From: Clostridia bacterium
GTDB lineage: Bacteria; Bacillota; Clostridia; Christensenellales; UBA1242
Assembly (NCBI GenBank): GCA_016297845.1
Contig: JAEDFV010000002.1
Span: forward strand, 671 to 64,670
Direction: 5' to 3'
Length of the DNA: 64,000 nucleotides
Below are positions 1,866-52,654 of the stretch, in pieces (position 1 is the stretch's first letter; the number at the start of each line of letters is the position of its first letter). The position numbers and the translations under genes were made by a program. The notes under the pieces are model-generated. The model worked only from the letters and a program-made list of their open reading frames with translations, was not told the DNA's origin and ran no database searches.

Positions 1866-1866
1866 A

Positions 1867-2226: not shown

Positions 2227-2246
2227 GTTTAGTATGTCATCATTTG

Positions 2247-2891: not shown

Positions 2892-2955
2892 TTTCCCTCG
2901 CTTATAAATAACTATAACCTTTTAATAAAAAAAAATCAACTGAAAATCAGTTGAT

Positions 2956-3315: not shown

Positions 3316-3343
3316 TCTATAATTATTCCATTATTTAAACTTT

Positions 3344-4789
3344 TTAAATCCTTGAGATTTTTTTTGCAAAATCAAGTCTTCTAATAAGTTTTTCTTTGTC
3401 ACGCTCTATTTCAGTTTTCTTAACCTCATATTTAGGCACTTCTGGTCGTGACATAATGTAATATCTAAGTTCGTCCATCGCATGGTCATCTTTCTTTGTT
3501 GGCGCATCATTATTCCCCCAAAAATAGCCTTTAATCTCTCGAATCATATTAACACAATTCCTGAAGATGAAAAGCTTTGCTTTTCCTTCTGCATTTTTAA
3601 GATATGATTTCACTCGATTGATTCCAGAAAAAAGGTCTTTGTTAACTTTTGGTGAGACACAAATTCCATTTTCAAGAAACAGTTCGGTTACACTTTTTAC
3701 TCCAGCAAGAGTTTTTTGATTTGCTGCCGAATCTATTATAGCTTCATATTTATCACCAAATTTTTTTTGCCAATTAAGTCGTTCACAAATCCGTTTTATT
3801 TCGTTTGAGTGAAAAATAATATCTTTTCCCGCTTGATAGTGTTCTGCAATTACATATACATTACCATCAAAGTCAACTGCATACCAATGTGCAGAAAGTG
3901 GATTGTTGAGACCAGGGTCAATTGAAATTTTATCATACCATTCTTTTGGAACTTCAAACGGGTCAATTACATGCAACTGAGGGTCAAATTCTGGATAAAC
4001 AAGACCCCCAACTGCCGTAAACTTTCCGTAGCACCTTGTTTCAAGTTCACTTTCACTCATAGAAGATTTCAAGTTTTTTATTTCTTCTTCTGCAAGATAC
4101 GGATTATCGTCCCAACTCATGCAAATTGACCAAACTTCATCGTCTCCCTTATCATTTAAATAAATTTCATCGTATACCCAAGTCAGCCCTTTAAGAGGTG
4201 TCATGGTTCCATAAATTTCACCTTGGCGGTCTATAACTCTCATTTTACATTCTTTGTATATATCTTCTGGCGGTTCTTCGTCAAACCACACATAATTAAG
4301 CGAAGTTCCTTGAAACTTTTCACGACCTTGGTCACAACTTTTAAATCCAATTCTGCTGTGTCCCCCAAAAACATTTTTTATTAAAATGTAATCAACAATC
4401 CCACTTTCAGGAAAATCCTTTGACCCGCTTTCCATGACTACATCTTCTATCCATTCAGGTTTAAGATAATGAAATATTTTGTTCTGTGCAACATCTCTTT
4501 GAACTTGCTTTGAAAGAGAAACAACCCAAATTGACACATTGTCTATGTTTTTGCGGAAAGGGTGTATGCCACGAGCAAGCCAAACAGTTTCAACAGCCCC
4601 ACACTCAGTTTTCCCGCTTCGGTTTCCTCCAAATACCCAACGATTACGTTTGTTTGATTTATGAAACTCAAGTTGTTTAAGATGTTTTTTGGTTCCAGAG
4701 TTGTATGTATCAATGGCATTATGATCATTTCTAACTTTTAACTGCTTGTCTATAGCATAAATCAACTTAAGAATTTCTGTTTTTGTCAT
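3344..4789 (-). CDS. terL: Phage terminase large subunit-like protein (orphan)
   Basis: Walker A GGNRSGKTECG and Walker B VWFDEEP in the N-terminal ATPase. The C-terminal RNaseH-like nuclease has acidic motifs SIDPGLNNP, IIDSAA and DDHAMDELRY. No portal, capsid or small terminase ORF nearby. Confidence 0.8.
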   Translation of the reverse strand: MTKTEILKLIYAIDKQLKVRNDHNAIDTYNSGTKKHLKQLEFHKSNKRNRWVFGGNRSGKTECGAVETVWLARGIHPFRKNIDNVSIWVVSLSKQVQRDVAQNKIFHYLKPEWIEDVVMESGSKDFPESGIVDYILIKNVFGGHSRIGFKSCDQGREKFQGTSLNYVWFDEEPPEDIYKECKMRVIDRQGEIYGTMTPLKGLTWVYDEIYLNDKGDDEVWSICMSWDDNPYLAEEEIKNLKSSMSESELETRCYGKFTAVGGLVYPEFDPQLHVIDPFEVPKEWYDKISIDPGLNNPLSAHWYAVDFDGNVYVIAEHYQAGKDIIFHSNEIKRICERLNWQKKFGDKYEAIIDSAANQKTLAGVKSVTELFLENGICVSPKVNKDLFSGINRVKSYLKNAEGKAKLFIFRNCVNMIREIKGYFWGNNDAPTKKDDHAMDELRYYIMSRPEVPKYEVKKTEIERDKEKLIRRLDFAKKISRI

Positions 4790-4873
4790 AATATCTCCGT
4801 TTAAAAGTTATTTCATTATTTTTAGACATATTTCTGCTAAGCCCCCACATATAAAAACTGATATACTTTTGTC

Positions 4874-5740
4874 ATGTCAATAAATATATTTAAAAAAACA
4901 ACACTGTTTTTTTTAATATCAGTTATTTTATCATTTGTACTGTTGCTTCCCAAGGCAAAAATTTCTTGCCTTTGTGCAACATCACAATCCTACTATGCGC
5001 AAATAGTTGCATCAAATGTTAAATTATATCGTTCAACAAATGGTAGCGAAGAGATTTCAAACATATTTTTTGTAATCCCCCAAACATATTTTGTTGAAAT
5101 CTCGAGTTGCGAAAACTCAAATTTTTTTACAGCGCGATATTTTGATAAAACAGGTTATGTAAAAAAAAGTGAAGTTAAATGTGTAAAAGGAATCCCACAA
5201 ACACCTTTTGCCAATGCCAGCTTCAGGGTTTTTATTCCAGGTGGTGTTGCTCTTCGCACCAGTCCTTCTCAATCGGAAGGACTCAACACAGTTGAAACCT
5301 TGCCGTTTCTTGAAACAAATCTGAGATATTATGGAACCATTGATGGCGAAGAAGCAATCTCACATAAATCTTCAACATGGTACTATTGTAAATATATTAA
5401 AAGTGGTAGTGAAGTTTTTGGATATGTTTATGGTGCATTCTGTGACCTTTTAACAACAATCCCTTCCAATACTGAAATACTTGAAGAAATCGAAGAACCT
5501 GATTTCACAATAGCAACACAAGCAGAAGCAACACAAGTTGAAGAAAGTGGCTTAAGTTCACTACCATCAACAACTCAAATAATAATAATTGTTGCCGTAT
5601 GTTTGCCTTGCGTTATTATAATTTATTTACTTTTTAAACCAACAAAAATAACAGCCAAAGCACTTGAAGATGCGGAAAATAAACCCCGCAGACGAAAAAA
5701 AAGGCAACGACATCAAGATTATTATGAATATGATGAATGA
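4874..5740 (+). CDS. Secreted/membrane-anchored protein with SH3b-like repeats, C-terminal TM helix and basic tail
   Basis: N-terminal hydrophobic signal, two segments resembling bacterial SH3 (..VKLYRSTNGSE.., ..ALRTSPSQSEG..), TM IIIIVAVCLPCVIIIYLLF, then KPRRRKKRQRH. Confidence 0.55.
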   Translation: MSINIFKKTTLFFLISVILSFVLLLPKAKISCLCATSQSYYAQIVASNVKLYRSTNGSEEISNIFFVIPQTYFVEISSCENSNFFTARYFDKTGYVKKSEVKCVKGIPQTPFANASFRVFIPGGVALRTSPSQSEGLNTVETLPFLETNLRYYGTIDGEEAISHKSSTWYYCKYIKSGSEVFGYVYGAFCDLLTTIPSNTEILEEIEEPDFTIATQAEATQVEESGLSSLPSTTQIIIIVAVCLPCVIIIYLLFKPTKITAKALEDAENKPRRRKKRQRHQDYYEYDE

Positions 5741-6291
5741 ATGGGATTTGCAATGCTTTTTATAATTCTTAAGCAATCAAAATTGGCATTGAAAATGTCG
5801 TTTTCAACAACACCCTTTTCAAAGAATTCATAGCATTTTTCATAAACTTCCATTATCCAACCTTCAGAAGAATATTTTTTCATAAAATACTCTTCTGTAA
5901 AATTGTTGTTTTTTAAATATTTTTCAAACTCATCATATGCCTTGTTAAGTCGCCTGAAATAAGTTCTGTCGCTTAGACCAAGCAGTTTTGCAATTTCTGC
6001 ACTTGTCTTTCCATCAACATGTTTCAAAATTAAAATTTTAGCACAAGTTCTGTCAATTTTCTTCAGTCCATTAATGCAAATTGTATTAAGGTTAATTAGG
6101 TTAATTTTACTATCCATCACATTAATAATAAATTTGCTTACTGATTCACCGTTATACTCGTGAATATTTTTAGAATTGACAAACATAGACGCAATGGCCT
6201 TTTTGTAAATTACATGGTCAAGTGCCTTAGTGACCTTTTCGAGATATCTTTGAACTGTCAACATTGTCTTGGCCCAAACTTTAAGTTCCAT
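5722..6291 (-). CDS. Sigma-70 region-4-like HTH protein (phage late-regulator RinA/ArpU-like)
   Basis: ILILKHVDGKTSAEIAKLLGLSDRTYFRRLNKAYDEF is a region-4/LuxR-type HTH. No region-2 motif was seen. It lies next to the orphan terminase. Confidence 0.55.
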   Translation of the reverse strand: MELKVWAKTMLTVQRYLEKVTKALDHVIYKKAIASMFVNSKNIHEYNGESVSKFIINVMDSKINLINLNTICINGLKKIDRTCAKILILKHVDGKTSAEIAKLLGLSDRTYFRRLNKAYDEFEKYLKNNNFTEEYFMKKYSSEGWIMEVYEKCYEFFEKGVVENDIFNANFDCLRIIKSIANPIHSSYS

Positions 6292-6560
6292 TTTTTCTCC
6301 TTTGCTGTAAAAAATTATGCCTATTAAAATTAATAAACAATAAAATTATAAAATTGATTTTTTTACATTGTCAACAACGTCTGCCATTATTGTACATTAA
6401 TTTTGTAAAAAAACAAAACTATTTTTTACAAAATTCGACCTTTTTAGACATTTTTATACAAATTCTATATAAACTGAACATTTCAGACCCTGAAATATTG
6501 GAAAATACGCCAAAAAAATTATCTTACAGTCAAAAAAAATTTGCCATGAAAGGCAAATTT

Positions 6561-7994: not shown

Positions 7995-8003
7995 AACATT
8001 CTC

Positions 8004-8321: not shown

Positions 8322-8331
8322 AATTTAGCCT

Positions 8332-9171: not shown

Positions 9172-9260
9172 AATCTCATTCTATCACAAAATTATTATAT
9201 GACAAACTTTTTAATTTTAATAATAAAAAACTGTTCATTATTTGAACAGTTTTTTCTATT

Positions 9261-11366: not shown

Positions 11367-11450
11367 ATTTCCTCCAATTTTCTTGCATTAGTATAACACA
11401 TTGATAAAGAATTAACTAATAATTTTAAAATATTTTTTGAAAATTATTTT

Positions 11451-14822: not shown

Positions 14823-17800
14823 TCCTATTAATTATATCTTCAGAAATTTCTCGACCAAGTTCACGCGGTTCTTGACTCAAATTTTGTTTAAATGAACACA
14901 CGCCATAAAGTGGACATTTCGAACACACAAATTCACCCGTTGGAATTGCAGAAATTTTTCCAGATAAAACTTCTTTTCTAAAATTTTTTAAAAGTAATTT
15001 CAAATATACAAAAGCATTCTCAAACCCTTGTTCGCTGAAAACATTTTTCGAAGTTGAAAGAACGAGATTCATGACAGTGGAAGATTTTGCAAGTTTAAGC
15101 GAAACTATGTCACTTGATAAATTTCTGCCAAATCTTCTGTCAAGGTCTTTTATAACTTGTGAATCTCTCAAAACAAATCCATCTAGAACAAATTTTTTTG
15201 AATCTCCATCTTTCGAGAAATCTCCACTTATCGGCATATAAAATCCGCCAGCAGGTTTGTAGCCATAAATTTCCTTTATGGCAAAAAGATATAGAAAAAG
15301 TTGCAATTCAATTCCATTTTGGAAAGCAATCAAACTTCTTTTTGTTTCACCAGATTTATAATCAATTACTCTAAAGAAATTTTCAGACAAATCAACCCTG
15401 TCAATTACGCCACAGATTTTAAAATCATCAATTAAAAATTCAAAGAACTTTTCAACAAATTTTGCAAAAAAGTTTGAATTTTTTTGTTCATAAACAATTT
15501 GAGAAAGAAGCATTTTTGCCTCTTTTTTCAAAATTTGGAACAAATGTAAATTTTCAGTGTTTTCATAGAGAAGTTTAAATCTTTCATCTTTTTTTATAAT
15601 TTCAAAAATTTTGTCAAGTTCTCTATCAATGTCACTCTCATTCAAATTTCTAATATTTTTTAAATTGCGTTCAACAAAACTCTGTGCATAGATATGAAAA
15701 AAGTTTCCGTAATCACGCCCATCAAATTTGCCTTTTGGATTTTCCTTAACTCTGAGTCCATAAAGCAAAAAGTGTTTAAGTGGACACTCATAAAACTTTT
15801 CAATTTGCGTTGGAGAAAATTTTCGTCCAAAAATTTTTTCAGGGTTTGACAAATTTTCTTCAAGACAATCCTGTTTCCCAACAAGTCTTTCAATATCTGA
15901 GTTTGAAATTTTATTTTCATTTTTGAGATTTATAATAAATTCATTTAAATCATATTTTGTTTGAAAATTAAATTCATCAAGATTCTCGCCTACAAATTTT
16001 TCGTTAAATTTACTTAAGATTTGAATTTCTTTATTTTGCGAAGTAAACATCTTTTTGAATTCATCAAAGATGATTGATTTTTCAACTTTTTCCCCCAATT
16101 CATCTTCAGAAACTGAAACAAAAACCTCATCTGCAAGTGTCAAATCAAACAAAAGTTTTTGTTTGTTTCTCTTGTTAATCATGTTTATAGTTGGTTGAAT
16201 TGGAAGCGAAACTTTTGCAATATCGCTATCAGACATAAGCCCTAAATCTTTTGTCGTCATAGGAATTGTGCCCTGTTTTGCAAAGGTCACAAAAAGCACC
16301 TTTCTTTTTTCAAAGAAAGATTTTTGACTTCCCACATAAACACAATCGACAGAAAGCCCCGCTGATGAAATTTCTTTATCGCCAAAAAGTTTTAAAAATA
16401 TCTCAACATAATTTCCAAAATCAATTTCTTCATTAAAACAAAGAGTTTTAATTATGGTTTCAAAAACATTTTCTATTTGTACATAAATTTTTTCTTCATT
16501 GCAATTTTTTATTTTTAATTGCTCAACAATTTCATTTGTTGTTTCAAACACAAAAAATTGGTCACAAAGATTTTTTGTTAATTTAGAAAAATCATCAAAA
16601 GTTTTGGCACTTTGATATTTCTTTTCTATTTCATTTAGTTTATCTACAAAAATTTCTATGTCAGGGAAATTTGCACAATGTGAAATTTCAAAAAAACCTT
16701 TTGAAGAAATATAATTTTGAAAATCTGAAATCTCATCAAATGAAATTTTTGAATATACATTTGTGAGAATGTTTAATAATGAGGCATACGACTTTGTATT
16801 GAAAAATTCGAAAATATTTTTAAGAAATGAATAAATTGGCAATGTCGAAATTTTCGTTGCAATGTCAAAGAAAACAGGAATTTCTCTTTCCAAAAATATT
16901 TTTTCAAAACGCTCTTTTTCCTCTTCTAAATTCCCGCAAAGAATATTGAAATCTTTAAATCTATATCCTTTTTTTTGTACATAGAAATTTATTGTTTTTG
17001 CAACTTCTGTTATCTCATCTGTAGGTGTTTCAAACTCCAACAAATGAACATTGTTTGTTTCTAATTGAGTTTTTGAATATGAAAAAAGATTTTTAAGAAT
17101 ATGTTCAGAAAAATTAGAAATGTTTTGTTTAATAAAAATCTTTTCAAAAGCAATTTTATTAAGTCGAGAAATATTTGAAAGTTTATTCATTATATCAGAA
17201 TCATAAACGAACGAATTCTTTTGTTTGTCAGGCATTATCGCTCCAACAACCACATTTTTCCCGTTCAATATGAGCTTCTCTAAAACTTTCCCTCCTTGTT
17301 CAGTTAAACTATCAAAACCTGCAAAAAAGAAATTGGATTTTGAAACTTTTTCAACATCAAGAAAAGTCACAAGATTTGACAACAAATCACTTTGATCAGG
17401 TTTAGTTTTCATGGATTCATAAATGGAAAAAATGTTTGCTAAATCAGAAAGTTTTTGATTTGTTGCTTTTGCAGAAAATTCGGCACAAGAAATATTACTT
17501 GATTTAAGTTGTGAAATAATTGCAAATATTTCATTAGCAAGTTCAAGTGTTGGATTTGAAAAAGAAGGGAAATTATTATTTTTCAGAATTAATAACACTT
17601 CCAAAACACTTTGGTCTTTCGAAAGAAGGTCTTGTTTTGTTAAAAAATATTTAGCGAGTTTTGAAATGCCAAGAACTTTTATATTAAACGAAGTTTTTAT
17701 TCCCAAACACTCAAAAATTTCTTTTTCTGCAAAGAGAGAAAATCTGTCAGGAACAACAACAAAATTTTCAAGGTCAACAGAACTTGAAATAGGAATTTCA

Positions 17801-17859
17801 TTAATAACTGCTTGTGTAACTTCCGCAAGCGAATTTCCAATCAAAATTTTTGTACTCAC
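14797..17859 (-). CDS. addB: Helicase/nuclease subunit B (AddB/RexB type, Walker A absent)
   Basis: Size and position upstream of addA. C-terminal nuclease with Fe-S cysteines (YECPLKHF ... CSKCPLYGVC). The N-terminal position of GRAGSGKT reads GNSLAEVT. GTG start. Confidence 0.85.
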   Translation of the reverse strand: MSTKILIGNSLAEVTQAVINEIPISSSVDLENFVVVPDRFSLFAEKEIFECLGIKTSFNIKVLGISKLAKYFLTKQDLLSKDQSVLEVLLILKNNNFPSFSNPTLELANEIFAIISQLKSSNISCAEFSAKATNQKLSDLANIFSIYESMKTKPDQSDLLSNLVTFLDVEKVSKSNFFFAGFDSLTEQGGKVLEKLILNGKNVVVGAIMPDKQKNSFVYDSDIMNKLSNISRLNKIAFEKIFIKQNISNFSEHILKNLFSYSKTQLETNNVHLLEFETPTDEITEVAKTINFYVQKKGYRFKDFNILCGNLEEEKERFEKIFLEREIPVFFDIATKISTLPIYSFLKNIFEFFNTKSYASLLNILTNVYSKISFDEISDFQNYISSKGFFEISHCANFPDIEIFVDKLNEIEKKYQSAKTFDDFSKLTKNLCDQFFVFETTNEIVEQLKIKNCNEEKIYVQIENVFETIIKTLCFNEEIDFGNYVEIFLKLFGDKEISSAGLSVDCVYVGSQKSFFEKRKVLFVTFAKQGTIPMTTKDLGLMSDSDIAKVSLPIQPTINMINKRNKQKLLFDLTLADEVFVSVSEDELGEKVEKSIIFDEFKKMFTSQNKEIQILSKFNEKFVGENLDEFNFQTKYDLNEFIINLKNENKISNSDIERLVGKQDCLEENLSNPEKIFGRKFSPTQIEKFYECPLKHFLLYGLRVKENPKGKFDGRDYGNFFHIYAQSFVERNLKNIRNLNESDIDRELDKIFEIIKKDERFKLLYENTENLHLFQILKKEAKMLLSQIVYEQKNSNFFAKFVEKFFEFLIDDFKICGVIDRVDLSENFFRVIDYKSGETKRSLIAFQNGIELQLFLYLFAIKEIYGYKPAGGFYMPISGDFSKDGDSKKFVLDGFVLRDSQVIKDLDRRFGRNLSSDIVSLKLAKSSTVMNLVLSTSKNVFSEQGFENAFVYLKLLLKNFRKEVLSGKISAIPTGEFVCSKCPLYGVCSFKQNLSQEPRELGREISEDIINRIVENGEQI

Positions 17860-38341: not shown

Positions 38342-38470
38342 ATATTATTGAATTTTTTATTGGTTTGGGTGACTTTATGGTCACTTTTTAAATTTTTGTT
38401 TGTTTTTTGTGTTGCAAGATTGTGCGAAGTATTGGGCGATTTAGAAGGTTTTTTCAAGTTGTATTCGGTA

Positions 38471-38508
38471 CTTAGGAGAGACGCTCTACCTTGCTGAGCT
38501 ACGGAAAC
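38471..38508 (-). other. tRNA 5' fragment (acceptor to anticodon loop) ending at CTCCTAAG
   Basis: Minus strand reads GTTTCCG-TA-GCTC-AGCAAGGTA-GAGC-GTCT-CTCCTAAG, then unrelated sequence. No 3' half can be paired. Confidence 0.6.
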
Positions 38509-38707
38509 ATTTCTTGTACCGAGATAGTTTAACATAAATATTTTAAAAAATCAATTTAATAGCAACAAATAGATTAATCATTTATAAAATAACAATCTTT
38601 TTTTAATTTTTTAACAAAAAAATAAATTTTTTCGACAAAAATTGATATAGATATTGACACAAAAGCATTTTTGGTTTAAAATAAACTAGAAATTTTTATG
38701 AGGTTAT

Positions 38708-39538
38708 ATGAAAGACATAAACAAATATAAATTCTTCTATAATTACTATAAACCTTCAAACGATAGTCGCAACTATGGAGATTTTTTACGTGACTATACT
38801 TTTGAAATTTCAAGATACAGAGAAAACATAAAAAACTTTCATGATTTATATACGATTATAAAAGAAAAATACAAAGTTAAAGAAGGATTTAGCAATTTTC
38901 TTGAGGAAGTTTATTCTTTTAATTATGATAATCTTATTAAAGCAGATGCAAAGAAAAAAGCACTGGATGCTTTTTGGAGTTCTCTCTCCTTTGGAACTGC
39001 AGTAGACCCTGTTGAACATCAAAAGAAACTTGAAAAAGCAATCGAAAAAAGTGAAATTTTCAAAACAACGCTTACAAAAAGACTTAAAGCGATGAATTTG
39101 AATGTTAACATTGAAAATGATAAACTTGCAAAAGTTGCATTAAGCAATTTAAAAAATTCTGATTTACAAAGTATTGTATTAACAAGCTTACAAAATGAAA
39201 TTAGGACTCTGATTGTTTCTGGAATTTTAGAATTCACTAATAGTATTGACAATGCTACAAAATATGTGACTTTATACAGCAAAAATTCCGAACTAAATAA
39301 AGCTTGGGAGTTAACATTACATTGTATAGATAATGATGCAAAAAAAGCATTGCTTGAATGTTTCTCTTGGAAAGACGATTATGACAATGTTGCAAAACCA
39401 AAGTTAAGTGACAAAGTTGATAGTGAAAAGTTCTATAAAGACCTTAACGAGCGCATAAAAGAGAGAGAACGAAGAGAAGGGAAAAAACCTGTTGGAATTC
39501 GTTTTGCTCCAAGTGGTGTTTTCCAAATCAGTTTGTAA
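38708..39538 (+). CDS. Hypothetical protein
   Basis: 276-aa ORF with GAGG RBS. Helical, Lys/Glu-rich, no motif recognised. Confidence 0.5.
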   Translation: MKDINKYKFFYNYYKPSNDSRNYGDFLRDYTFEISRYRENIKNFHDLYTIIKEKYKVKEGFSNFLEEVYSFNYDNLIKADAKKKALDAFWSSLSFGTAVDPVEHQKKLEKAIEKSEIFKTTLTKRLKAMNLNVNIENDKLAKVALSNLKNSDLQSIVLTSLQNEIRTLIVSGILEFTNSIDNATKYVTLYSKNSELNKAWELTLHCIDNDAKKALLECFSWKDDYDNVAKPKLSDKVDSEKFYKDLNERIKERERREGKKPVGIRFAPSGVFQISL

Positions 39539-39546
39539 AAATTCAA

Positions 39547-39578
39547 CAAAAAAAACGATATCGATTGATATCGTTTTT
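39547..39578. terminator. Bidirectional terminator (copy 1 of a duplicated terminator)
   Basis: AAAAAACGATATC-GATT-GATATCGTTTTT. The same stem occurs at 48875-48906. Confidence 0.65.
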
Positions 39579-39595
39579 CTTATATTGAATAGCAA

Positions 39596-42500
39596 TTACG
39601 CTTTTTCAACAATCTTGCTTTCATAACTTGAGCCTAAAGCAGTTACGTATGCATCTTTTGTTCCAGCTGGAACATAGATTGTTATGCTCAAAGAATAATC
39701 TAATGGATCAGTCCAAAATGTTGGCGGTGTAGTACCTTTAAAAGTAATTGCTGTAAGTTTTTTGCATCCAAAAATTACCGAACCCCCCATATTAACAACA
39801 CTACTTGGAATTGTAATTGATATCAAACCTGTGCAATTAGCGAATACATCATCACCTATGGTTGTTACACTGTTTGGGATTGTAACTGATGTCAAGCCTG
39901 TGCAATCAGAGAATGCATGACTATCAATACTTGTTACACTACCTGGAATTGTGATTGATATCAAACCTGTGCAACCAGAGAATGCAGAACTACCTATGCT
40001 TGTTACAGTATTTGGGATTTCAATTGATGTCAAGCCTATGCAATCAAAGAATGCATGACTACTAATACTTGTTACACCGCTTCCAATTGTAACTGTTGTC
40101 AAACCTGTGCAATTATCGAATGCATATTCACCAATACTTGTTACACTATCTGGAATCGTAATTGATGTCAAGCCTGTGCAACCTTCAAATGCATAACTAC
40201 CTATGCTTGTTACACTGTTTGGAATCGTAATTGACATCAAGTTCATGCAACTTTCGAATGCACGACCGCCAATACTTGTTACACCGCTTCCAATTGTAAC
40301 TGATGTCAAGCCTGTGCAACCTTCAAATGCACAACTATCAATACTTGTTACACTGTCTGGAATCGTAATTGACATCAAGTCTGTGCAACCCATGAATGCA
40401 TAATTCCCTATACTCGTCAATGAGGAAGGTAAGATAACATTAATAACATCTGAATCTATGCTATAATATACGAGTCTTTGATATTTCCCAGTAAGAGACT
40501 TAACAGTATATGTTGTACCACCAATTTCAAATGTGTTTGGAATAATATAAGACGTTTCCGATGTGGTTACTGATGTTATGGTTAATTCTGTTTCGTATTT
40601 ACTGTATGTTATGTCACTTGAAGTTAAAGTATAGAAACCTTCAAACTCATATGTAATCGTTACTGCATTTGCTGGCATTGTAAATGTATATACGCCTTCT
40701 GAAATTTTTGTTACTTCAACTGCTCCACTGTTAACTTTCAAAGATTTTATTCCATAACCTGTATTTCCAATCGTTGTTATTGTAACAGTATCGCCATCAA
40801 ATGCTTCGGCAACGTCTGTTTCAACAGTTCCATTATCAGCTTCAACTATTGCAATTGAACTCTTAACTCCAAAGTCAACTCTTACTTCTACGTTGTAAGC
40901 AATCATATTGAAAACATATTCGTTTTCATTTGCTGTTTTTGCTGGAATTAATGTTTCATAAATTCCATCGCCGTTTGAATCATAGAGAACTGAAATGGCT
41001 TTGAGAGAATAGCCATCGTCTGGTGCAACTGTGATTGTGATTTCATCATTGTAATTTGCAGTTGTTTTTGAAGCTGTGAATGAACCATTTACGAAGCTTT
41101 CTTCGTCAATTGTTATTGTATATAAAACAAGAGAGTAATTTACAGAAATTGTTACATTTCCTGCTGGCATTGTGAACTTGTTATCTGTTACAACAATTGG
41201 TGTTTCACCGCACATAACTGTGTATGTTGCTTCATAACCAGCTTCTGGATTTGAAGTTATAACAACTTCTTCACCATATGTTGCTGTATCTTGAATTTCG
41301 AAAGTTCCATGGTCAGAAGTTCCTGTTCTTTCAATAGTGTAAACTACTTGTTTGAATGTAACTGTTACTGTAACATCTTCTCCTGGCATTGAGAATGATG
41401 TTTCACCTACTTCAAGAGCAGTTCCGTTAACCAAAATTTGGTCAAGTTCATAACCTTCATTTGGATAAACTGTGACTTCTACAGAATCACCATAGTATCC
41501 TTCTGTTACAGAAAGATCAAAGGTTCCGTTTACTGTTTCTCCTTTTGTAATTTGAACTGTTTTCTTTCGGCATTCATAGTCAAAAGTAACCTCACCTGCT
41601 GGCATTACAAAGTACGCCAAGTCTTCGCCATTAGGACCCTGTTCCATTTGTACGGCTCCCATAAGGTCGCCTCCTGCCCAGTATAAATTTACACCACTAT
41701 CAGAGAACTCATAACCTGGTTGTGGGGTAGCAAGACATATGTATGCTCCTAATCCAAGTTCTACGGCTACACTTTCCTCAACTACGTAGACTTTTGTTCC
41801 TTCCGCAACAGCTATTGGGTTGGCATAAATGTTTGAACCTTCGTAAGAAACTATATTAATTGCGAATCCTTCTTGCACAAATGTTGCAGAAATTGTTACG
41901 TTTCCTGCTGGCATTGTGAATGTTGCAGTATTTCCATCAATAGTTCCTAAAACATTCAAATCTCCGTTTTTGATTGTGAGACTTTCAAGGCCATATGTTG
42001 CATTTGGAGAAATTGTGAGAGTAATTATTTCGCCAACAATTGCTGTTGTTTTGTTTGGAATTACACTTCCATTTTCTGAAGAACTAACTGCAATTAAATA
42101 TTGATTTGCTGTCAATTCAACTGTTACTTCTGAATTTTCTGTAACAACGAACGAATTTCCAGAAATTGCTGTTCCATTAACTTTTATTGCTGAAACAGTA
42201 TATCCCGCATCTGGAGTTACAGTTACTGTAATTGTATCTCCATAATTTGCTGTTGTTTTTGATAAGGTTATTTTTCCATGTTCTGGATTTATTTTTGAAA
42301 CATCATATTCATTTGCCTTAAACTCAACAGTAACTGTTGTGTCTTGAGCTGGCATAGTGAAAGTTGTTCCAGAGATTGTGTTTCCATTTACTTTTATTTT
42401 ACTGAACAAATATCCAGCATCTGGTGTTATTCCAGTTACTTCTATTGTGTCGCCATAGTTTGCAGTTGCTGGAATAGTGAAAGTTCCATGTTCGCTTGCT

Positions 42501-43096
42501 TTTGTCAAAGAATATGTAATCTTTTCAAAAGTTGCGTTAATTGTTATGTTTCCTTTTGGCATATTAAAAGAGTATTTATCTCCTTCTTTAGTTACCAAAA
42601 TTTGGAGGCCTCCATTAAGAACTTCAAGATATGTAGATTCATAACCTTTTGTTGGAACTGGTGTAAGAGTTACTTTTGTACCCCATTCAATTTTATCACC
42701 AGTTGAAATGTTTTGCTCATCAACTTCAATGTCAATTGTTCCGTGTTCAACGTTACCGATATTAACTGCATAGTTTATTTTCTTAAACCTTGCTGTTACA
42801 TTAATGTTTCCTTCTGGCATAACAAATTTATTGTTGATAACTATTTTTCCGTTAACCTTCAAAGAGTCCTGAACATATTCATAACCTTCTCCAGCTTCTG
42901 GAATAATGGTTATTTCTTCCCCAGCAATCGGATCGCCAATAACTTTAACCGAACAACCACTTGGGATTGCTTTGTCGATTGTTATGTTATACGCTGTCAT
43001 ATCTGCTTTTGTACAAGCTGTAAAGACAAATGCAGAGCAAAAAATAAGCGCAAAGCAACATAACACTGAAAGCAACGCTTTTTTGATTTTTGTCAT
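39596..43096 (-). CDS. Large surface lipoprotein, paralog 1: ~11 Ig-like B-repeats (Listeria-Bacteroides/InlB-B type) plus BspA-type leucine-rich repeats
   Basis: Signal peptide with lipobox (VFTAC). Repeated ~70-aa units (..HGT..v.....a.yGdtvtvt.tPd.GY....ikVNG..i.g..FtMP...vtv...F). C-terminal 23-aa LRR_5-type units (IP.SVTSIG..AF.GCTGLTSITI). Confidence 0.85.
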   Translation of the reverse strand: MTKIKKALLSVLCCFALIFCSAFVFTACTKADMTAYNITIDKAIPSGCSVKVIGDPIAGEEITIIPEAGEGYEYVQDSLKVNGKIVINNKFVMPEGNINVTARFKKINYAVNIGNVEHGTIDIEVDEQNISTGDKIEWGTKVTLTPVPTKGYESTYLEVLNGGLQILVTKEGDKYSFNMPKGNITINATFEKITYSLTKASEHGTFTIPATANYGDTIEVTGITPDAGYLFSKIKVNGNTISGTTFTMPAQDTTVTVEFKANEYDVSKINPEHGKITLSKTTANYGDTITVTVTPDAGYTVSAIKVNGTAISGNSFVVTENSEVTVELTANQYLIAVSSSENGSVIPNKTTAIVGEIITLTISPNATYGLESLTIKNGDLNVLGTIDGNTATFTMPAGNVTISATFVQEGFAINIVSYEGSNIYANPIAVAEGTKVYVVEESVAVELGLGAYICLATPQPGYEFSDSGVNLYWAGGDLMGAVQMEQGPNGEDLAYFVMPAGEVTFDYECRKKTVQITKGETVNGTFDLSVTEGYYGDSVEVTVYPNEGYELDQILVNGTALEVGETSFSMPGEDVTVTVTFKQVVYTIERTGTSDHGTFEIQDTATYGEEVVITSNPEAGYEATYTVMCGETPIVVTDNKFTMPAGNVTISVNYSLVLYTITIDEESFVNGSFTASKTTANYNDEITITVAPDDGYSLKAISVLYDSNGDGIYETLIPAKTANENEYVFNMIAYNVEVRVDFGVKSSIAIVEADNGTVETDVAEAFDGDTVTITTIGNTGYGIKSLKVNSGAVEVTKISEGVYTFTMPANAVTITYEFEGFYTLTSSDITYSKYETELTITSVTTSETSYIIPNTFEIGGTTYTVKSLTGKYQRLVYYSIDSDVINVILPSSLTSIGNYAFMGCTDLMSITIPDSVTSIDSCAFEGCTGLTSVTIGSGVTSIGGRAFESCMNLMSITIPNSVTSIGSYAFEGCTGLTSITIPDSVTSIGEYAFDNCTGLTTVTIGSGVTSISSHAFFDCIGLTSIEIPNTVTSIGSSAFSGCTGLISITIPGSVTSIDSHAFSDCTGLTSVTIPNSVTTIGDDVFANCTGLISITIPSSVVNMGGSVIFGCKKLTAITFKGTTPPTFWTDPLDYSLSITIYVPAGTKDAYVTALGSSYESKIVEKA
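40503..43096 (-). repeat. 2.6-kb near-identical direct repeat, copy 1 (partner 50061..52654)
   Basis: Constant offset of 9558 nt. Encoded residues 1-864 are identical except T34K and K42E. Spurious plus-strand ORF translations are also identical between copies. Confidence 0.9.
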
Positions 43097-47375: not shown

Positions 47376-48489
47376 CTATTTGCTTGCACTTTTCTTAAGA
47401 TAGTCGCTTATAAATGGTTCAATGTCACCGTCCATAACGCCAAATATGTCGCTGGTTTCATAGCCAGTTCGATGGTCCTTGACCATTGTGTATGGGTGGA
47501 AAACATATGAACGAATTTGACTTCCCCACTCAATTTTTTTGAGTTCTCCACGAATGTCGTTCAGTTTCGCAAGTTCTTCCTCCTCTCGCTTTTCAACAAG
47601 TTTTGAAAGCAACATTTTCATGCATGTCTCACGATTTTGAATTTGACTGCGCTCCGTTTGACACGAAACAACAAACCCAGTTGGAATGTGAGTTATTCGA
47701 ATTGCACTTTCAGTTTTGTTAATGTGCTGACCGCCAGCGCCACTGCTTCGATAGGTGTCAATTTTGAGGTCTTCGCTTCGAATAACAATGTCTTCACTCT
47801 CCGAAATTTCTGGCATAACTTCGACACTTGCAAAACTTGTGTGACGGCGCGCGTTTGAATCAAATGGAGAAATTCGAACAAGCCTGTGGACACCTTTTTC
47901 GCATTTCAAGAATCCATAGGCGTTGTCGCCTTCAACGGTGAAAGTTATGGATTTTATTCCCGCTTCGTCTCCGTCAAGTACACTTAATACACTCGTCTTG
48001 AACCCTTCCTTTTCGGCATATCGCGCGTACATTCTATAGAGCATGTTCGCCCAATCTTGCGCTTCGGTTCCGCCCGCCCCAGCATGAATTGTCAATATCG
48101 CATTGTTTGAGTCATATTTTCCCGAAAGAAGTGTTTCAAGTTTTGTTTTTTCAATGTCTGAAGAAAACGATTTTATCTCGCGCAAAAGTTCGTCAAAAAA
48201 TTCGCGCCCTTCATCATCTCCAGAAATTTCAGCAATTTCCAAAAGTGCGTTTATGTCCGCAAGTTTTTTTTCGAAAGACTTTACTTTTCCAATTCGCGCC
48301 TCAAGTTTTTTCAGTTCTTTTCCAACCTTGAGCGCTTTTTCGCTGTCTTGCCAAAACCCGTCAGACTCCTGCTCCAATTTTAAACTTGAAATTTTGTTCC
48401 GCGTTTCTTCCGTGTCAAAGACACTCCTTTATGAAGGAGAATTCCTTTTCTAGTTCTTTGACTTTTATTTTTTCATTTTCAACTATCAT
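47376..48489 (-). CDS. prfB: Peptide chain release factor 2, with programmed +1 frameshift
   Basis: ORF0 is 48489..48415 (MIVENEKIKVKELEKEFSFIKECL*). After the +1 shift at CTT TGA C, reading continues DTEETRNKISSLKLEQESDGFWQD... to 47376. SPF and GGQ motifs (RISPFD, SGAGGQHINK) are present. Confidence 0.93.
48414..48429 (-). promoter_or_regulatory. RF2 autoregulatory +1 frameshift site
   Basis: Coding strand AAG GAG TGT CTT TGA C: an internal SD-like AAGGAG 3 nt before the slippery CTT, then UGA followed by C. Confidence 0.9.
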
Positions 48490-48496
48490 ACGAAAG

Positions 48497-48525
48497 ACTA
48501 TACATTTTCTGCTCAAGTTTGTCAA
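48497..48525 (-). promoter_or_regulatory. prfB promoter (predicts a leaderless mRNA)
   Basis: Minus strand TTGACA (48525-48520), N17, TATAGT (48502-48497). Only 7 nt (CTTTCGT, no SD) separate the -10 from the ATG at 48489. Confidence 0.55.
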
Positions 48526-48556
48526 TCTTTTTCGCTCTTGAATTTTTCGCTATATT

Positions 48557-48860
48557 TTTGTAAAATAAATCAGTCTTATTTGTAAAAAATACATATTTTT
48601 GTAAAATAACACGCGTTTTGTAAAATATACAAAATATTTTTGTAAAAAAGACCTTATTTTGTAAAATACCCTTTATTTTGTAAAGAAATCATAATATTTG
48701 TAAAATATTTAGGTTTTTGTAAAATATTCTTTGTTTTTTGTAAAATAATTCATTTTTGTAAAATTATAAAGACTTTTGTAAAGAACTTTTTATATTTTGT
48801 AAAATATGTACGGATTGACTTTTGTAAAATATTAAATATTTTTGTAAAATATTTTACAAA
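48557..48860 (+). repeat. Array of 15 phased direct TTTGTAAA(A/G)(T/A) boxes with unrelated spacers, ending in a 20-bp palindrome
   Basis: Box starts: 48557, 48579, 48598, 48617, 48639, 48658, 48677, 48697, 48716, 48737, 48755, 48775, 48796, 48821, 48841. The inverted copy at 48851-48860 gives TTTGTAAAATATTTTACAAA. Confidence 0.9.
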
Positions 48861-48874
48861 ATCCCCCACTCCAT

Positions 48875-48906
48875 AAAAAAAACGATATCTTTCGATATCG
48901 TTTTTC
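48875..48906. terminator. Bidirectional terminator (copy 2 of the duplicated terminator)
   Basis: AAAAAAAACGATATC-TTTC-GATATCGTTTTT. Confidence 0.65.
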
Positions 48907-48922
48907 TTATATTGAATAGCAA

Positions 48923-51900
48923 TTACGCTTTTTCAACAATCTTACTTGCATAGCTTGAACCTAAAGCAGTTACGTATGCACTCTTTGTTCCAGTAGGAAC
49001 ATAGATTGTTGTAAGTGAGGTACAATTATAGAATACATCATTTCCAAATGTTGGAGGTGTAGTACCTTCAAAAGTTATTGATGTTAAGCTTGTATCACTA
49101 AATGCAACATCACTTATGCTTGTTACACTATCTGGGATTGTAATTGATGTCAAGTTTGTGCAACCAGAAAATACGGAATTTTCAATACTTGTTATGCCAT
49201 TTCCAATTGTTACTGATGTCAAGCTTTTGCAACCAGAGAAGGCGCTAGCACCTATAGTTGTTACACTATTTGGGATTGTAATTGATGTCAAACCTGTGTT
49301 AAGGAATGCCTCTTCTCCTATAATTGTTACGCCATTTGGAATTGTGATTGATGTCAAGCCTGTGCAACCAAAGAATGCAGAATCGGCGATTCCTATAACA
49401 TCGCTAGGAATTGCTAGGGTTCCAGTAGGTTCTGTTGTTTTATATCCTAAAAGCCATCTCTTTCCATCTGCTCGTGAGATATATAAATTTCCGACAGCAG
49501 CATTATTGTAGAAATACGTATTAGTGAATGCAGAATTACTGATACTTGTTACACTACTTGGTATTGTTATTGATGCCAAGTTTGTGCAGTCTAGGAACGC
49601 AGATATTTCTATACTTTTTACACCGTTTGGTATTGCAATAGACGTCAAACCTGTGCACTGAAATGCCCAACCCCCTATACTTGTTACACTGCTTGGTATT
49701 GTTATTGATGTTAAGCCTGTGTGACCAGAGAATGCATAATAACCAATACTTGTTACATTGTTTGGAATTATTGTGTTTTTGCAGCCTGCAACCAATTTAT
49801 TAGTAGAAATTTCAATTATACAATTTGCTCCATCGCCAGATGTATAGGTTGTATTTCCTTCTTCTACTACTATTGATTTCAAAGATGAACAATTATTAAA
49901 TGAACTACCATCAATACTTGTTACACTATTTGGAATTGTGATTGATGTTAGGTCTGTGCAATTTTTAAATGCGCCATATATAGCTGTTAATGTAGAAGGT
50001 AAGACAACATTAACAACATCTAAATCTATACCACCACTAAATGTTCCTTCAAGTTTTTTGACAGTATATGTTGTACCACCAATTTCAAATGTGTTTGGAA
50101 TAATATAAGACGTTTCCGATGTGGTTACTGATGTTATGGTTAATTCTGTTTCGTATTTACTGTATGTTATGTCACTTGAAGTTAAAGTATAGAAACCTTC
50201 AAACTCATATGTAATCGTTACTGCATTTGCTGGCATTGTAAATGTATATACGCCTTCTGAAATTTTTGTTACTTCAACTGCTCCACTGTTAACTTTCAAA
50301 GATTTTATTCCATAACCTGTATTTCCAATCGTTGTTATTGTAACAGTATCGCCATCAAATGCTTCGGCAACGTCTGTTTCAACAGTTCCATTATCAGCTT
50401 CAACTATTGCAATTGAACTCTTAACTCCAAAGTCAACTCTTACTTCTACGTTGTAAGCAATCATATTGAAAACATATTCGTTTTCATTTGCTGTTTTTGC
50501 TGGAATTAATGTTTCATAAATTCCATCGCCGTTTGAATCATAGAGAACTGAAATGGCTTTGAGAGAATAGCCATCGTCTGGTGCAACTGTGATTGTGATT
50601 TCATCATTGTAATTTGCAGTTGTTTTTGAAGCTGTGAATGAACCATTTACGAAGCTTTCTTCGTCAATTGTTATTGTATATAAAACAAGAGAGTAATTTA
50701 CAGAAATTGTTACATTTCCTGCTGGCATTGTGAACTTGTTATCTGTTACAACAATTGGTGTTTCACCGCACATAACTGTGTATGTTGCTTCATAACCAGC
50801 TTCTGGATTTGAAGTTATAACAACTTCTTCACCATATGTTGCTGTATCTTGAATTTCGAAAGTTCCATGGTCAGAAGTTCCTGTTCTTTCAATAGTGTAA
50901 ACTACTTGTTTGAATGTAACTGTTACTGTAACATCTTCTCCTGGCATTGAGAATGATGTTTCACCTACTTCAAGAGCAGTTCCGTTAACCAAAATTTGGT
51001 CAAGTTCATAACCTTCATTTGGATAAACTGTGACTTCTACAGAATCACCATAGTATCCTTCTGTTACAGAAAGATCAAAGGTTCCGTTTACTGTTTCTCC
51101 TTTTGTAATTTGAACTGTTTTCTTTCGGCATTCATAGTCAAAAGTAACCTCACCTGCTGGCATTACAAAGTACGCCAAGTCTTCGCCATTAGGACCCTGT
51201 TCCATTTGTACGGCTCCCATAAGGTCGCCTCCTGCCCAGTATAAATTTACACCACTATCAGAGAACTCATAACCTGGTTGTGGGGTAGCAAGACATATGT
51301 ATGCTCCTAATCCAAGTTCTACGGCTACACTTTCCTCAACTACGTAGACTTTTGTTCCTTCCGCAACAGCTATTGGGTTGGCATAAATGTTTGAACCTTC
51401 GTAAGAAACTATATTAATTGCGAATCCTTCTTGCACAAATGTTGCAGAAATTGTTACGTTTCCTGCTGGCATTGTGAATGTTGCAGTATTTCCATCAATA
51501 GTTCCTAAAACATTCAAATCTCCGTTTTTGATTGTGAGACTTTCAAGGCCATATGTTGCATTTGGAGAAATTGTGAGAGTAATTATTTCGCCAACAATTG
51601 CTGTTGTTTTGTTTGGAATTACACTTCCATTTTCTGAAGAACTAACTGCAATTAAATATTGATTTGCTGTCAATTCAACTGTTACTTCTGAATTTTCTGT
51701 AACAACGAACGAATTTCCAGAAATTGCTGTTCCATTAACTTTTATTGCTGAAACAGTATATCCCGCATCTGGAGTTACAGTTACTGTAATTGTATCTCCA
51801 TAATTTGCTGTTGTTTTTGATAAGGTTATTTTTCCATGTTCTGGATTTATTTTTGAAACATCATATTCATTTGCCTTAAACTCAACAGTAACTGTTGTGT

Positions 51901-52654
51901 CTTGAGCTGGCATAGTGAAAGTTGTTCCAGAGATTGTGTTTCCATTTACTTTTATTTTACTGAACAAATATCCAGCATCTGGTGTTATTCCAGTTACTTC
52001 TATTGTGTCGCCATAGTTTGCAGTTGCTGGAATAGTGAAAGTTCCATGTTCGCTTGCTTTTGTCAAAGAATATGTAATCTTTTCAAAAGTTGCGTTAATT
52101 GTTATGTTTCCTTTTGGCATATTAAAAGAGTATTTATCTCCTTCTTTAGTTACCAAAATTTGGAGGCCTCCATTAAGAACTTCAAGATATGTAGATTCAT
52201 AACCTTTTGTTGGAACTGGTGTAAGAGTTACTTTTGTACCCCATTCAATTTTATCACCAGTTGAAATGTTTTGCTCATCAACTTCAATGTCAATTGTTCC
52301 GTGTTCAACGTTACCGATATTAACTGCATAGTTTATTTTCTTAAACCTTGCTGTTACATTAATGTTTCCTTCTGGCATAACAAATTTATTGTTGATAACT
52401 ATTTTTCCGTTAACCTTCAAAGAGTCCTGAACATATTCATAACCTTCTCCAGCTTCTGGAATAATGGTTATTTCTTCCCCAGCAATCGGATCGCCAATAA
52501 CTTTAACCGAACAACCACTTGGGATTGCTTCGTCGATTGTTATGTTATACGCTTTCATATCTGCTTTTGTACAAGCTGTAAAGACAAATGCAGAGCAAAA
52601 GATAAGCGCAAAGCAACATAACACTGAAAGCAATGCTTTTTTGATTTTTGTCAT
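48923..52654 (-). CDS. Large surface lipoprotein, paralog 2: same B-repeat N-terminal 864 aa, divergent and longer BspA-type LRR region
   Basis: Identical signal/lipobox and B-repeats. After ..GGTTYTVK the sequence diverges (KLEGTFSGG.. vs SLTGKYQRL..). The LRR_5-type repeats are irregular. The conserved C-terminal end is ..YVPTGTKSAYVTALGSSYASKIVEKA. Confidence 0.85.
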   Translation of the reverse strand: MTKIKKALLSVLCCFALIFCSAFVFTACTKADMKAYNITIDEAIPSGCSVKVIGDPIAGEEITIIPEAGEGYEYVQDSLKVNGKIVINNKFVMPEGNINVTARFKKINYAVNIGNVEHGTIDIEVDEQNISTGDKIEWGTKVTLTPVPTKGYESTYLEVLNGGLQILVTKEGDKYSFNMPKGNITINATFEKITYSLTKASEHGTFTIPATANYGDTIEVTGITPDAGYLFSKIKVNGNTISGTTFTMPAQDTTVTVEFKANEYDVSKINPEHGKITLSKTTANYGDTITVTVTPDAGYTVSAIKVNGTAISGNSFVVTENSEVTVELTANQYLIAVSSSENGSVIPNKTTAIVGEIITLTISPNATYGLESLTIKNGDLNVLGTIDGNTATFTMPAGNVTISATFVQEGFAINIVSYEGSNIYANPIAVAEGTKVYVVEESVAVELGLGAYICLATPQPGYEFSDSGVNLYWAGGDLMGAVQMEQGPNGEDLAYFVMPAGEVTFDYECRKKTVQITKGETVNGTFDLSVTEGYYGDSVEVTVYPNEGYELDQILVNGTALEVGETSFSMPGEDVTVTVTFKQVVYTIERTGTSDHGTFEIQDTATYGEEVVITSNPEAGYEATYTVMCGETPIVVTDNKFTMPAGNVTISVNYSLVLYTITIDEESFVNGSFTASKTTANYNDEITITVAPDDGYSLKAISVLYDSNGDGIYETLIPAKTANENEYVFNMIAYNVEVRVDFGVKSSIAIVEADNGTVETDVAEAFDGDTVTITTIGNTGYGIKSLKVNSGAVEVTKISEGVYTFTMPANAVTITYEFEGFYTLTSSDITYSKYETELTITSVTTSETSYIIPNTFEIGGTTYTVKKLEGTFSGGIDLDVVNVVLPSTLTAIYGAFKNCTDLTSITIPNSVTSIDGSSFNNCSSLKSIVVEEGNTTYTSGDGANCIIEISTNKLVAGCKNTIIPNNVTSIGYYAFSGHTGLTSITIPSSVTSIGGWAFQCTGLTSIAIPNGVKSIEISAFLDCTNLASITIPSSVTSISNSAFTNTYFYNNAAVGNLYISRADGKRWLLGYKTTEPTGTLAIPSDVIGIADSAFFGCTGLTSITIPNGVTIIGEEAFLNTGLTSITIPNSVTTIGASAFSGCKSLTSVTIGNGITSIENSVFSGCTNLTSITIPDSVTSISDVAFSDTSLTSITFEGTTPPTFGNDVFYNCTSLTTIYVPTGTKSAYVTALGSSYASKIVEKA
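50061..52654 (-). repeat. 2.6-kb near-identical direct repeat, copy 2 (partner 40503..43096)
   Basis: See copy 1. I found four substitutions, all in the last ~130 bp next to the start codon. Confidence 0.9.

Follow-up and report, generated by a model that had tools for sequence, protein, structure and literature searches.

What purpose could be served by fifteen nearly identical short boxes placed in direct repetition immediately upstream of a gene for an essential translation factor? The question is raised by a locus of a gut Clostridia bacterium of the Christensenellales (assembly GCA_016297845.1, contig JAEDFV010000002.1, positions 671 to 64,670; these 64,000 nucleotides (nt) are hereafter called the window), in which an array of boxes occupies positions 48557–48860, between the terminator of a leucine-rich repeat (LRR) surface-protein gene and the sigma-A promoter of prfB. 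We see roughly an even chance that the array represents a recently amplified set of operators, or upstream activating sequences (UAS), for a putative sequence-specific DNA-binding protein. The most likely binder would be the product of the open reading frame (ORF) 5722–6291, situated 42 kb from the array, for which we use the working name sig4, because the same box appears as the conserved operator/UAS of sig4's own promoter. The data show the anatomy of the array, its strain polymorphism and its restriction to one species, selection on the box, the conserved occurrence of the box at sig4 promoters and a sigma-4 fold in the modelled protein; we infer the binding of a protein to the box, sig4 as this protein and the direction of any effect on prfB.

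Direct reading of the region 48200–49100 bore out the anatomy given in an earlier note made from the sequence alone. Plus-strand boxes start at 48557, 48579, 48598, 48617, 48639, 48658, 48677, 48697, 48716, 48737, 48755, 48775, 48796, 48821 and 48841, with start-to-start spacings of 22, 19, 19, 22, 19, 19, 20, 19, 21, 18, 20, 21, 25 and 20 bp; thirteen of the fifteen read TTTGTAAAA and the other two TTTGTAAAG. The last box abuts an inverted copy, and the resulting 20-bp palindrome TTTGTAAAATATTTTACAAA at 48841–48860 is exact in the window, as had been claimed; this perfection is not conserved, the allele in L001 carrying a 1-bp insertion at its centre. When the units are aligned on the box, the conserved core comprises 12 nt, tTTTGTAAAAtA, and the spacers between cores are roughly 6–13 bp long. 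The box is quasi-palindromic, since TTTTGTAAAA differs from its own reverse complement solely in the central GT/AC, and its central G/C pair and flanks are invariant. The box nearest to prfB ends 31 nt upstream of the −35 hexamer, at about −67 to −76, and the boxes together span about −67 to −370 relative to the prfB promoter. The earlier note had expected only a handful of copies of its 9-mer in the window; it occurs 20 times, where dinucleotide shuffles give 8.1 ± 2.4, and the array accounts for 14 of these copies. What the note observed thus goes far past chance. The array is not an assembly artefact, since an independent assembly from another sample (L003) is base-for-base identical over the whole intergenic region. 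No ORF of at least 60 amino acids (aa) runs across the array, and Rfam and ARAGORN scans returned nothing in or near it. The plus-strand RNA does fold with a z-score of −5.9, for which the terminator, the palindrome and U/A complementarity suffice, so that we do not count the folding in favour of an RNA gene. A clustered regularly interspaced short palindromic repeat (CRISPR) array was rejected: CRISPR repeats measure 23–50 bp, with spacers of like length and cas genes usually nearby, which is at odds with the dimensions found here.

The spacers are mutually unrelated, as the earlier note had stated, with a mean pairwise identity of 0.38 and about 0–0.4 bits per position, as compared with 1.2–2.4 bits in the core. 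Between units, the core departs from the column majority at 9 of 180 positions, as opposed to 46 of 84 in the spacers (p = 2e-19), and between the five alleles of the same species that were compared, 8 of 176 core columns are variable, as opposed to 27 of 108 spacer columns (p = 9e-7). A box so much less variable than its spacers indicates selection on the box. These alleles, whose PrfB proteins are 98–100% identical and whose Der proteins are identical wherever checked, contain 15+1, 9+1, 8+1, 7+1 and 5+1 intact boxes, that is 16, 10, 9, 8 and 6. They differ by unit-sized deletions with in-register breakpoints inside the boxes, consistent with recombination between functional repeats, and by point changes; every allele has the palindrome at the distal end together with the first unit, as well as the three units closest to the promoter. 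In a sister species (six contigs, PrfB 91% identical) the gene order is the same (LRR gene, terminator, prfB, der, plsY, hydrogenase gene), but the LRR–prfB intergenic region of 184 bp, in which the terminator is followed by gtgggggTTGTGGAAAAAAgatTTGACA, is devoid of the array. More distant relatives showed no array at prfB and have a different synteny. The array is thus species-specific, young on the species scale and hypervariable. The earlier note would have counted it as a refutation of its reading if orthologous loci kept neither the boxes nor their phasing; at prfB this is the case, since the syntenic sister species has no array, which is thus not an ancient conserved element.

Where, then, does the box come from? 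A position weight matrix (PWM) built from the 15 array units was used to scan the window on both strands (128 kb in all), and only two sites outside the array reached 14 bits. These form an inverted pair at 6401–6433, upstream of the sigma-A-type promoter of sig4, and the chance expectation for such a pair in the window is 1e-5. The earlier note had named this helix-turn-helix (HTH) gene among its candidate regulators, and its own promoter indeed carries the conserved box. We compared the orthologous sig4 loci L089, L123, L125, L126, L140–L144, L200/201 and L202/203, whose proteins are 29–83% identical. The box is found in the promoter region of every locus for which upstream sequence was available (about ten lineages), including that of the sister species (L202/203), which possesses both the gene and the operator box pair. 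In eight aligned upstream regions, TTTTACAAAA is the sole fully invariant block besides parts of the −35 and −10 hexamers. The layout varies: inverted pairs are 22 or 32–34 bp apart, centre to centre, while the promoter in L089 has three direct boxes 19–20 bp apart and that in L200/201 has four boxes, one of them inverted and three direct, with spacings of 16, 20 and 24 bp. Judging from these alignments, the element natively consists of two to four boxes ahead of a sigma-A promoter, with about two turns of the helix from one box to the next, and on the same grounds we regard the prfB array as a scaled-up version of the sig4-promoter element, its boxes being oriented toward the promoter as in L089.

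The sig4 promoter region has further features. An ATGGCAG block between the proximal box and the −35 hexamer is conserved in sig4 promoters, and a (T)GTCGA(A/T) motif, which we take to resemble the '0A box' TGTCGAA of Spo0A, lies at about 6434–6445 and at equivalent positions in L123, L125, L141, L143, L200 and L202, at the distal sig4 box or up to about 25 nt upstream of it. The sig4 gene may thus be under sporulation-type control. In a wedge model, all results of which given here are approximate, the most curved 300-bp windows of the 64 kb are at 6301–6650, which covers the sig4 promoter/operator region, and at 38451–38800 (end-to-end/contour ratio 0.44–0.46).

The sig4 protein matches Sigma70_r4_2 in Pfam (E = 2e-7) and, weakly, region 4 of extracytoplasmic function (ECF) and SigF sigma factors in NCBIfam, while its PHROG matches are phage transcriptional activators and regulators, a sigma factor and a Q-like protein (E = 8e-7 to 2e-4). 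Since all PHROG matches are transcription regulators, the possibility that sig4 is a small terminase was ruled out. In an AlphaFold model (predicted local distance difference test 75, predicted template-modelling score 0.68), the central domain superposes on −35-binding sigma-4 domains with target-normalised template-modelling scores of 0.7–0.84 and root-mean-square deviations of about 1–2 Å, which makes sig4 a plausible DNA binder. The putative recognition-helix segment RT(Y/F)FRR is kept even at 29% overall identity, in agreement with the unchanged box. The family comprises 325 clusters at 50% identity (E ≤ 1e-10), its members being annotated at NCBI just as 'sigma factor-like HTH' or 'ECF-type sigma factor'; relatives were found at four loci in metagenome scans and at none in viral scans.

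These data would fit a scheme in which sig4 binds its own promoter in an autoregulatory manner, and in which a box-like seed beside the prfB promoter was amplified in this species to 6–16 sites, units being gained and lost by unequal recombination or slippage between boxes. Each unit consists of one 12-bp quasi-palindromic box, whose core is T4-GT-A4, and of about 8 bp of free spacer. The prfB boxes resemble in orientation and in their spacing of about 20 bp the three or four boxes found upstream of some sig4 orthologues, and the array might either couple prfB transcription to the regulator or titrate the regulator as a sink. A more far-reaching version, which we consider improbable, is that the array is a naturally evolving regulator sink or rheostat of a widely conserved, hitherto unrecognized chromosomal module of phage origin, or else a chromosomal locus of entry or recognition for DNA packaging driven by a terminase, as in a gene-transfer agent. 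If the sink version were true, the module, apparently controlled through a Spo0A box, would combine an Ltr-type sigma-4-like regulator and a large terminase that has been domesticated, and the strain-specific number of 6–16 sites would set its firing threshold.

Several observations weigh against the assignment of the array to sig4. The proximal box is 31 nt from the −35 hexamer at prfB, whereas this distance is 26–28 nt in the majority of sig4 promoters and 16 nt in that of L089; at 31 versus 26–28 nt, the prfB boxes are some 4 bp out of helical register with those of sig4. Some interior boxes have decayed in strains of greater divergence (TTTTATAAA and ATTTTATTAA in L001/L197/L196 are examples), which, together with a copy number ranging from 6 to 16, suggests weak constraint on the number of boxes or on single boxes. 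The sister species lacks the prfB array although it possesses sig4 together with the operator pair, which implies that the array is dispensable as well as young. The PWM scan detected no boxes upstream of the terminase-large-subunit-like (TerL-like) gene of the same module, the expected place of action of an Ltr-type activator. With T4-GT-A4, the 8-mer is a simple one, and three-box clusters occur in many unrelated taxa, so that motif identity alone is weak evidence. Finally, another factor could recognize the box and control sig4.

A search of GTDB genomes for three boxes 9–16 nt apart gave, among the matches listed, more than 119 loci in unrelated phyla, none of those listed being from the present species. 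Most of those listed are exact 18–24-bp tandem repeats with identical spacers and hence unrelated to the prfB element. A subset of the listed clusters lies in promoter regions of Firmicutes (rpoB, a spo0A-like gene, recN, membrane proteins), with no common gene theme. Examples are L068, L085, L029, L048/L073/L077, L099 and L122, with three TTTGTAAAA boxes 19–25 bp apart and unrelated spacers; genes downstream of such triplets include rpoB of Parvimonas parva, a spo0A-like gene following spoIVB, and recN, and the last box is sometimes situated between a good −35 and an extended −10 hexamer. The same pattern in IMG/VR retrieved mostly tandem repeats from metagenome-assembled genomes of giant viruses, with the exception of L188 (UViG_3300021256_000058, a viral contig of 181.8 kb). 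Here, 26 TTTGTAAA/TTTACAAA boxes in both orientations and with unrelated spacers fill a 460-bp intergenic region (6469–6930), directly after a DUF6291 and HTH_7 gene whose reading frame contains a stop codon, possibly a recoded one. The region may serve the phage as an origin or operator array, with the same simple box used by an unrelated HTH family. No sig4 relative was detected by tblastn in the IMG/VR pattern candidates or in 50,697 phage records, and blastn of the array against PLSDB (72,556 plasmids) and GenBank phages gave no match, although low-complexity filtering could mask weak ones. A literature search on the box sequence returned irrelevant primer and eukaryotic matches only. The sites of Rex, CRP/NtcA-type regulators (TGTA-N8-TACA), WalR (TGTWAH), PhoP (TT(A/T/C)ACA), ResD, MogR and ComK were rejected as candidates for a misfit in half-site spacing or period.

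Among the alternatives to an operator set, the one that survives best, unlikely as it is in our view, is a neutral minisatellite, that is, an AT-rich slippage repeat bound by no protein and devoid of function, in which the box would look conserved through recent or concerted evolution. The absence of the array from the sister species, the 6–16 copies with unit-sized deletions among strains and the decayed boxes of some alleles would all be expected of it. Tandem Repeats Finder called the array with a period of 19, 14.9 copies and 65% matches, and reported higher-order periods of 58–60 bp at 76–77% identity, which suggest that the array has grown partly via duplication of multi-unit blocks. Moreover, clusters of TTTGTAAAA elsewhere have near-identical spacers in 115 of 184 cases, i.e. 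are plain tandem duplicates. The array does share with minisatellites and other variable-number tandem repeats (VNTRs) a strain-polymorphic copy number that changes by unit-sized insertions and deletions, but its units are not homologous over their full length. Against neutrality, copying of whole units, by duplication or gene conversion, cannot hold 12 nt near-invariant while the adjoining 7–9 nt randomize, as they do both between units and between alleles, whereas selection on the box is sufficient. In addition, the identical box is independently conserved as a promoter element in about ten lineages.

Somewhat less probable still is the proposal that neighbouring boxes supply −35-like and −10-like hexamers and thereby create overlapping weak sigma-A promoters, which would act as an RNA polymerase trap, give rise to short transcripts ending at the 48878–48905 hairpin (in one variant, a sponge RNA made of the repeated motif) or send sense transcription into prfB. 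The region contains 17 promoter-like sites as compared with 3.2 ± 2.0 in shuffles, among them ten of the form TTGTAA-N16-18-TAAAAT on the plus strand and five of the form TTTACA-N16-18-(C/A/T)A(A/T)(A/T)(A/T)T on the minus strand, and 10 of the 14 spacings are 19–21 bp, which gives promoter spacers of 16–18 nt. The last of three boxes overlaps a real-looking promoter in L068 and L085, and a good terminator lies at the end of the plus-strand RNA. However, all array sites match at 9 of 12 positions, as opposed to 11 of 12 for the genuine prfB promoter. The two strands also score alike, the geometry not being direction-specific; since the quasi-palindrome yields sites just as good in the other direction, on the minus strand, the resemblance to promoters in geometry probably follows from the box itself. 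On the plus strand, neither a gene nor a conserved RNA is there to be served (Rfam being empty), and the terminator is assigned to the LRR gene, because a paralogous locus has the terminator (39550–39580) without the array, as the earlier note had pointed out. At sig4, the box lies well upstream of canonical −35 and −10 hexamers, in either orientation and with variable spacing, which is the behaviour of an operator and not of a promoter. The tandem-promoter reading is therefore less likely than binding of a regulator.

DNA shape offers an explanation that we find more doubtful than the preceding ones: a curved element, or UP-element-like T4/A4 tracts, would stimulate prfB through bending or through contacts with the alpha-subunit C-terminal domain in RNA polymerase, and no dedicated protein would be needed. 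The core consensus of UP elements is reportedly TTTTnnAAAA, which the TTTT-AC-AAAA of the box on the prfB sense strand resembles; the mean local bend angle is 23 degrees as compared with a window mean of 15, and windows over the distal array end are among the ten most curved. Nevertheless, the claim that all boxes lie on one face of the helix did not hold. Taken modulo 10.5 bp, the boxes are spread in phase around the entire turn, with a resultant length R of 0.30; for periods from 10 to 11 bp, R rises to at most 0.53, which is matched by 41% of random 18–25-bp spacings (P = 0.41). The whole array has an end-to-end/contour ratio of 0.842, while the window averages 0.867, and so ranks at the 29th percentile among windows of 300 bp. 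With this value and the lack of a coherent helical phase, the notion of phased A-tract curvature fails as well. Even the nearest box is beyond the UP position of −38 to −59, and recognition of specific bases is suggested by the invariance of the central G/C pair and the flanks.

An iteron, centromere or pac-type site for replication, partition or packaging, in one version recognized by the terminase-like module, is very unlikely: numerous direct copies at intervals of about 20 bp, closed by a single inverted one, do resemble plasmid iterons and parC-type centromeres, sig4 is one gene away from a strongly conserved TerL-like gene, and the phage contig L188 has 26 boxes of the same 8-mer beside an HTH gene, but the Pfam scan of neighbouring ORFs found no rep, par or terS gene adjacent to the array (the flanks being the LRR gene and prfB–der–plsY), the array is chromosomal, missing in the sister species and variable in number, PLSDB and GenBank phages gave no match, and sig4 matches transcription-regulator PHROGs and not small terminases. 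Accordingly, of the binding array suggested in the earlier note, the regulator type is favoured, on indirect but consistent evidence, in view of the selection on the box and its invariant core at sig4 promoters, while the partition type is not supported.

Table 1. Coordinates of the array, the putative sig4 module and the flanking genes in the window
Feature	Position	Strand	Remarks
Direct-box array, 15 units, core tTTTGTAAAAtA	48556..48851	+	PWM 14.2–18.1 bits per unit; box on prfB sense strand is TATTTTACAAAA
Terminal inverted box abutting box 15	48851..48860	-	Found in all alleles; 1-bp central insertion in L001
Partial inverted pseudo-box TACAAAAT, within spacer	48628..48635	-	Stretch variable among alleles
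Inverted box pair	6401..6433	6401–6412 +, 6422–6433 -	16.8 bits each; 27 nt upstream of sig4 −35
sig4 promoter, sigma-A-type, TTGACA-18-TATAAT	6345..6374	-	−35 6374–6369, −10 6350–6345
sig4, candidate box-binding protein, sigma-70 region-4-type HTH	5722..6291	-	189 aa, pI 8.99; gene directly downstream of dnaB
TerL-like gene	3344..4789	-	481 aa; same conserved module as sig4; PF03237, phrog_2
prfB promoter, sigma-A-type, TTGACA-17-TATAGT	48497..48525	-	−35 48525–48520, −10 48502–48497; 11/12 match; kept in sister species
prfB	47376..48489	-	Programmed +1 frameshift site CTT TGA C at 48420–48414; ATG at 48489 (sequence reading)
Bidirectional intrinsic terminator of LRR gene	48878..48905	.	Distal array boundary; also at paralogous locus, ~39550–39580
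BspA-type LRR / InlB-B-repeat surface protein	48923..52654	-	1243 aa; gene upstream of array, co-directional with prfB

The TerL-like gene is one convergent gene away from sig4 in all loci. Both belong to a chromosomal module (927–17859) that comprises, in order, addB, addA, the gene of an AT-hook protein of about 700–850 aa, two small ORFs, dnaB, sig4, the convergent gene (265–319 aa), the TerL-like gene, a 119-aa ORF, an ABC-type ATPase gene, an HTH_30 protein gene, a 312-aa ORF and the RNase J gene, and that is the same in L089, L140, L141, L143, L200/201 and L202. The motifs GGNRSGKT, DEEP and DDHAMDELRY of the TerL-like protein are intact, and no capsid or portal genes were recognized among the scanned ORFs adjoining the module. 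The TerL-like proteins of the window and of L089 share 66% identity, the two sig4 proteins just 29%. The TerL-like gene looks like a domesticated terminase under strong purifying selection.

On the other side of the array, the prfB promoter described in the earlier note was confirmed, and prfB is followed on the minus strand by der, plsY, a Fe-hydrogenase gene and a rubrerythrin gene. Since the prfB ATG comes only about 8 nt after the −10 hexamer, the mRNA is apparently leaderless. The ATG is likewise 7–8 nt downstream of the −10 hexamer, with no Shine–Dalgarno sequence, in the relatives L127, L133 and L138, while the internal Shine–Dalgarno-like AGGAG ahead of the frameshift site is kept; the prfB message of this lineage thus appears to have no leader when it is translated. 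The LRR gene has a paralogue at 39596–43096, and the 3′ ends and terminators of the two LRR/InlB-B-repeat genes are near-identical. The counterpart of the LRR gene in other strains (L001) is in parts just about 50–83% identical, which suggests that such surface proteins diversify rapidly. A single TTTGTAAAAA box at 39532–39541 overlaps the stop codon of ORF 38708–39538, about 8 nt ahead of the A-run of the paralogous terminator and thus in a relative position similar to that of the distal array end. This box may be a coincidence or the remnant of a shared seed.

If the array is indeed an operator set, an uncharacterized family of sigma-4-like proteins gains a concrete candidate DNA motif and becomes tied to a terminase-like gene that is strongly conserved among gut Christensenellales and Clostridia related to them. 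As a natural cluster of transcription factor sites that grows and shrinks from strain to strain ahead of an essential gene of translation, the array would be a rarity, and hence useful for the study of how operator number tunes regulation or titration. Even if no protein were bound, it would be an instructive case of a selected short motif inside a fast-evolving repeat.

The statement in the earlier note that no described element matches the array was too strong, since the direct-repeat regions bound by phage Ltr proteins are functionally a close counterpart (Quiles-Puchalt et al. 2013, PMC3753634). RinA (typically about 130 aa), ArpU, LtrA (Sigma70_r4-like), LtrB and LtrC make up the Ltr superfamily; they are small basic proteins encoded beside terS, and these activators bind two to four direct repeats upstream of the late promoter, which are necessary and sufficient for specific activation (PMC3753634). 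The sig4 protein is also small and basic, has a sigma-4-like domain and is encoded near a terminase gene, and the direct boxes at the sig4 promoters in L089 and L200, like the prfB array, share the layout of a block of direct repeats. In contrast, the sig4 module is chromosomal, vertically conserved and outside any prophage, and sig4 is linked to phages only by PHROG profile matches at 1e-6 to 1e-7, with no tblastn similarity. At 189 aa it exceeds RinA (about 130 aa) in length, and its HTH is central. Instead of separating the genes of regulator and terminase, the boxes precede sig4 itself as well as prfB, and the array has 15 direct copies as opposed to two to four. We therefore regard the Ltr direct-repeat site as the closest known analogue of the array, membership of sig4 in the family not being established.

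Iterons and centromeres such as parC of R1, parC of pSK41, sopC of F and the omega heptads of pSM19035 consist of short protein-binding direct repeats, sometimes with inverted copies, and can serve as operators as well as structural platforms. The array, too, is made of tandem direct boxes about two helical turns apart. It differs from them in that it has no cognate Rep or Par genes nearby, is chromosomal, is inserted between housekeeping genes and has unconstrained spacers of variable length; it is moreover missing from the sister species, and nothing alike was seen in 72,556 plasmids.

Titration of a regulator by clustered sites has a precedent in datA, a cluster of titration sites for DnaA; to our knowledge, natural strain-to-strain variation in copy number has not been described for such decoy clusters. 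A modelling study treats decoy sites of response regulators, and an autoregulated regulator with extra sites agrees with the motif modelled there (PMC8599769). In the same way, many clustered high-affinity sites located away from the main target of the regulator could buffer its free concentration. Contrary to an inert decoy, the array is directly upstream of a promoter and may be regulatory.

Variation in copy number between strains is, on the other hand, familiar from promoter VNTRs such as the 7-bp repeats upstream of hmw in H. influenzae and the TAAA tract of nadA in N. meningitidis. There, as here, a repeat tract upstream of a promoter varies between strains by slippage or unequal recombination. 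The present units, however, are about 20 bp long with 12 bp conserved, the tract is not homogeneous, the downstream gene encodes an essential translation factor and not a surface antigen, and there is no sign of fast switching inside a population. The array is thus of a known kind, that of operator or direct-repeat arrays; what is new here is that it is unusually large, chromosomal and variable from strain to strain.

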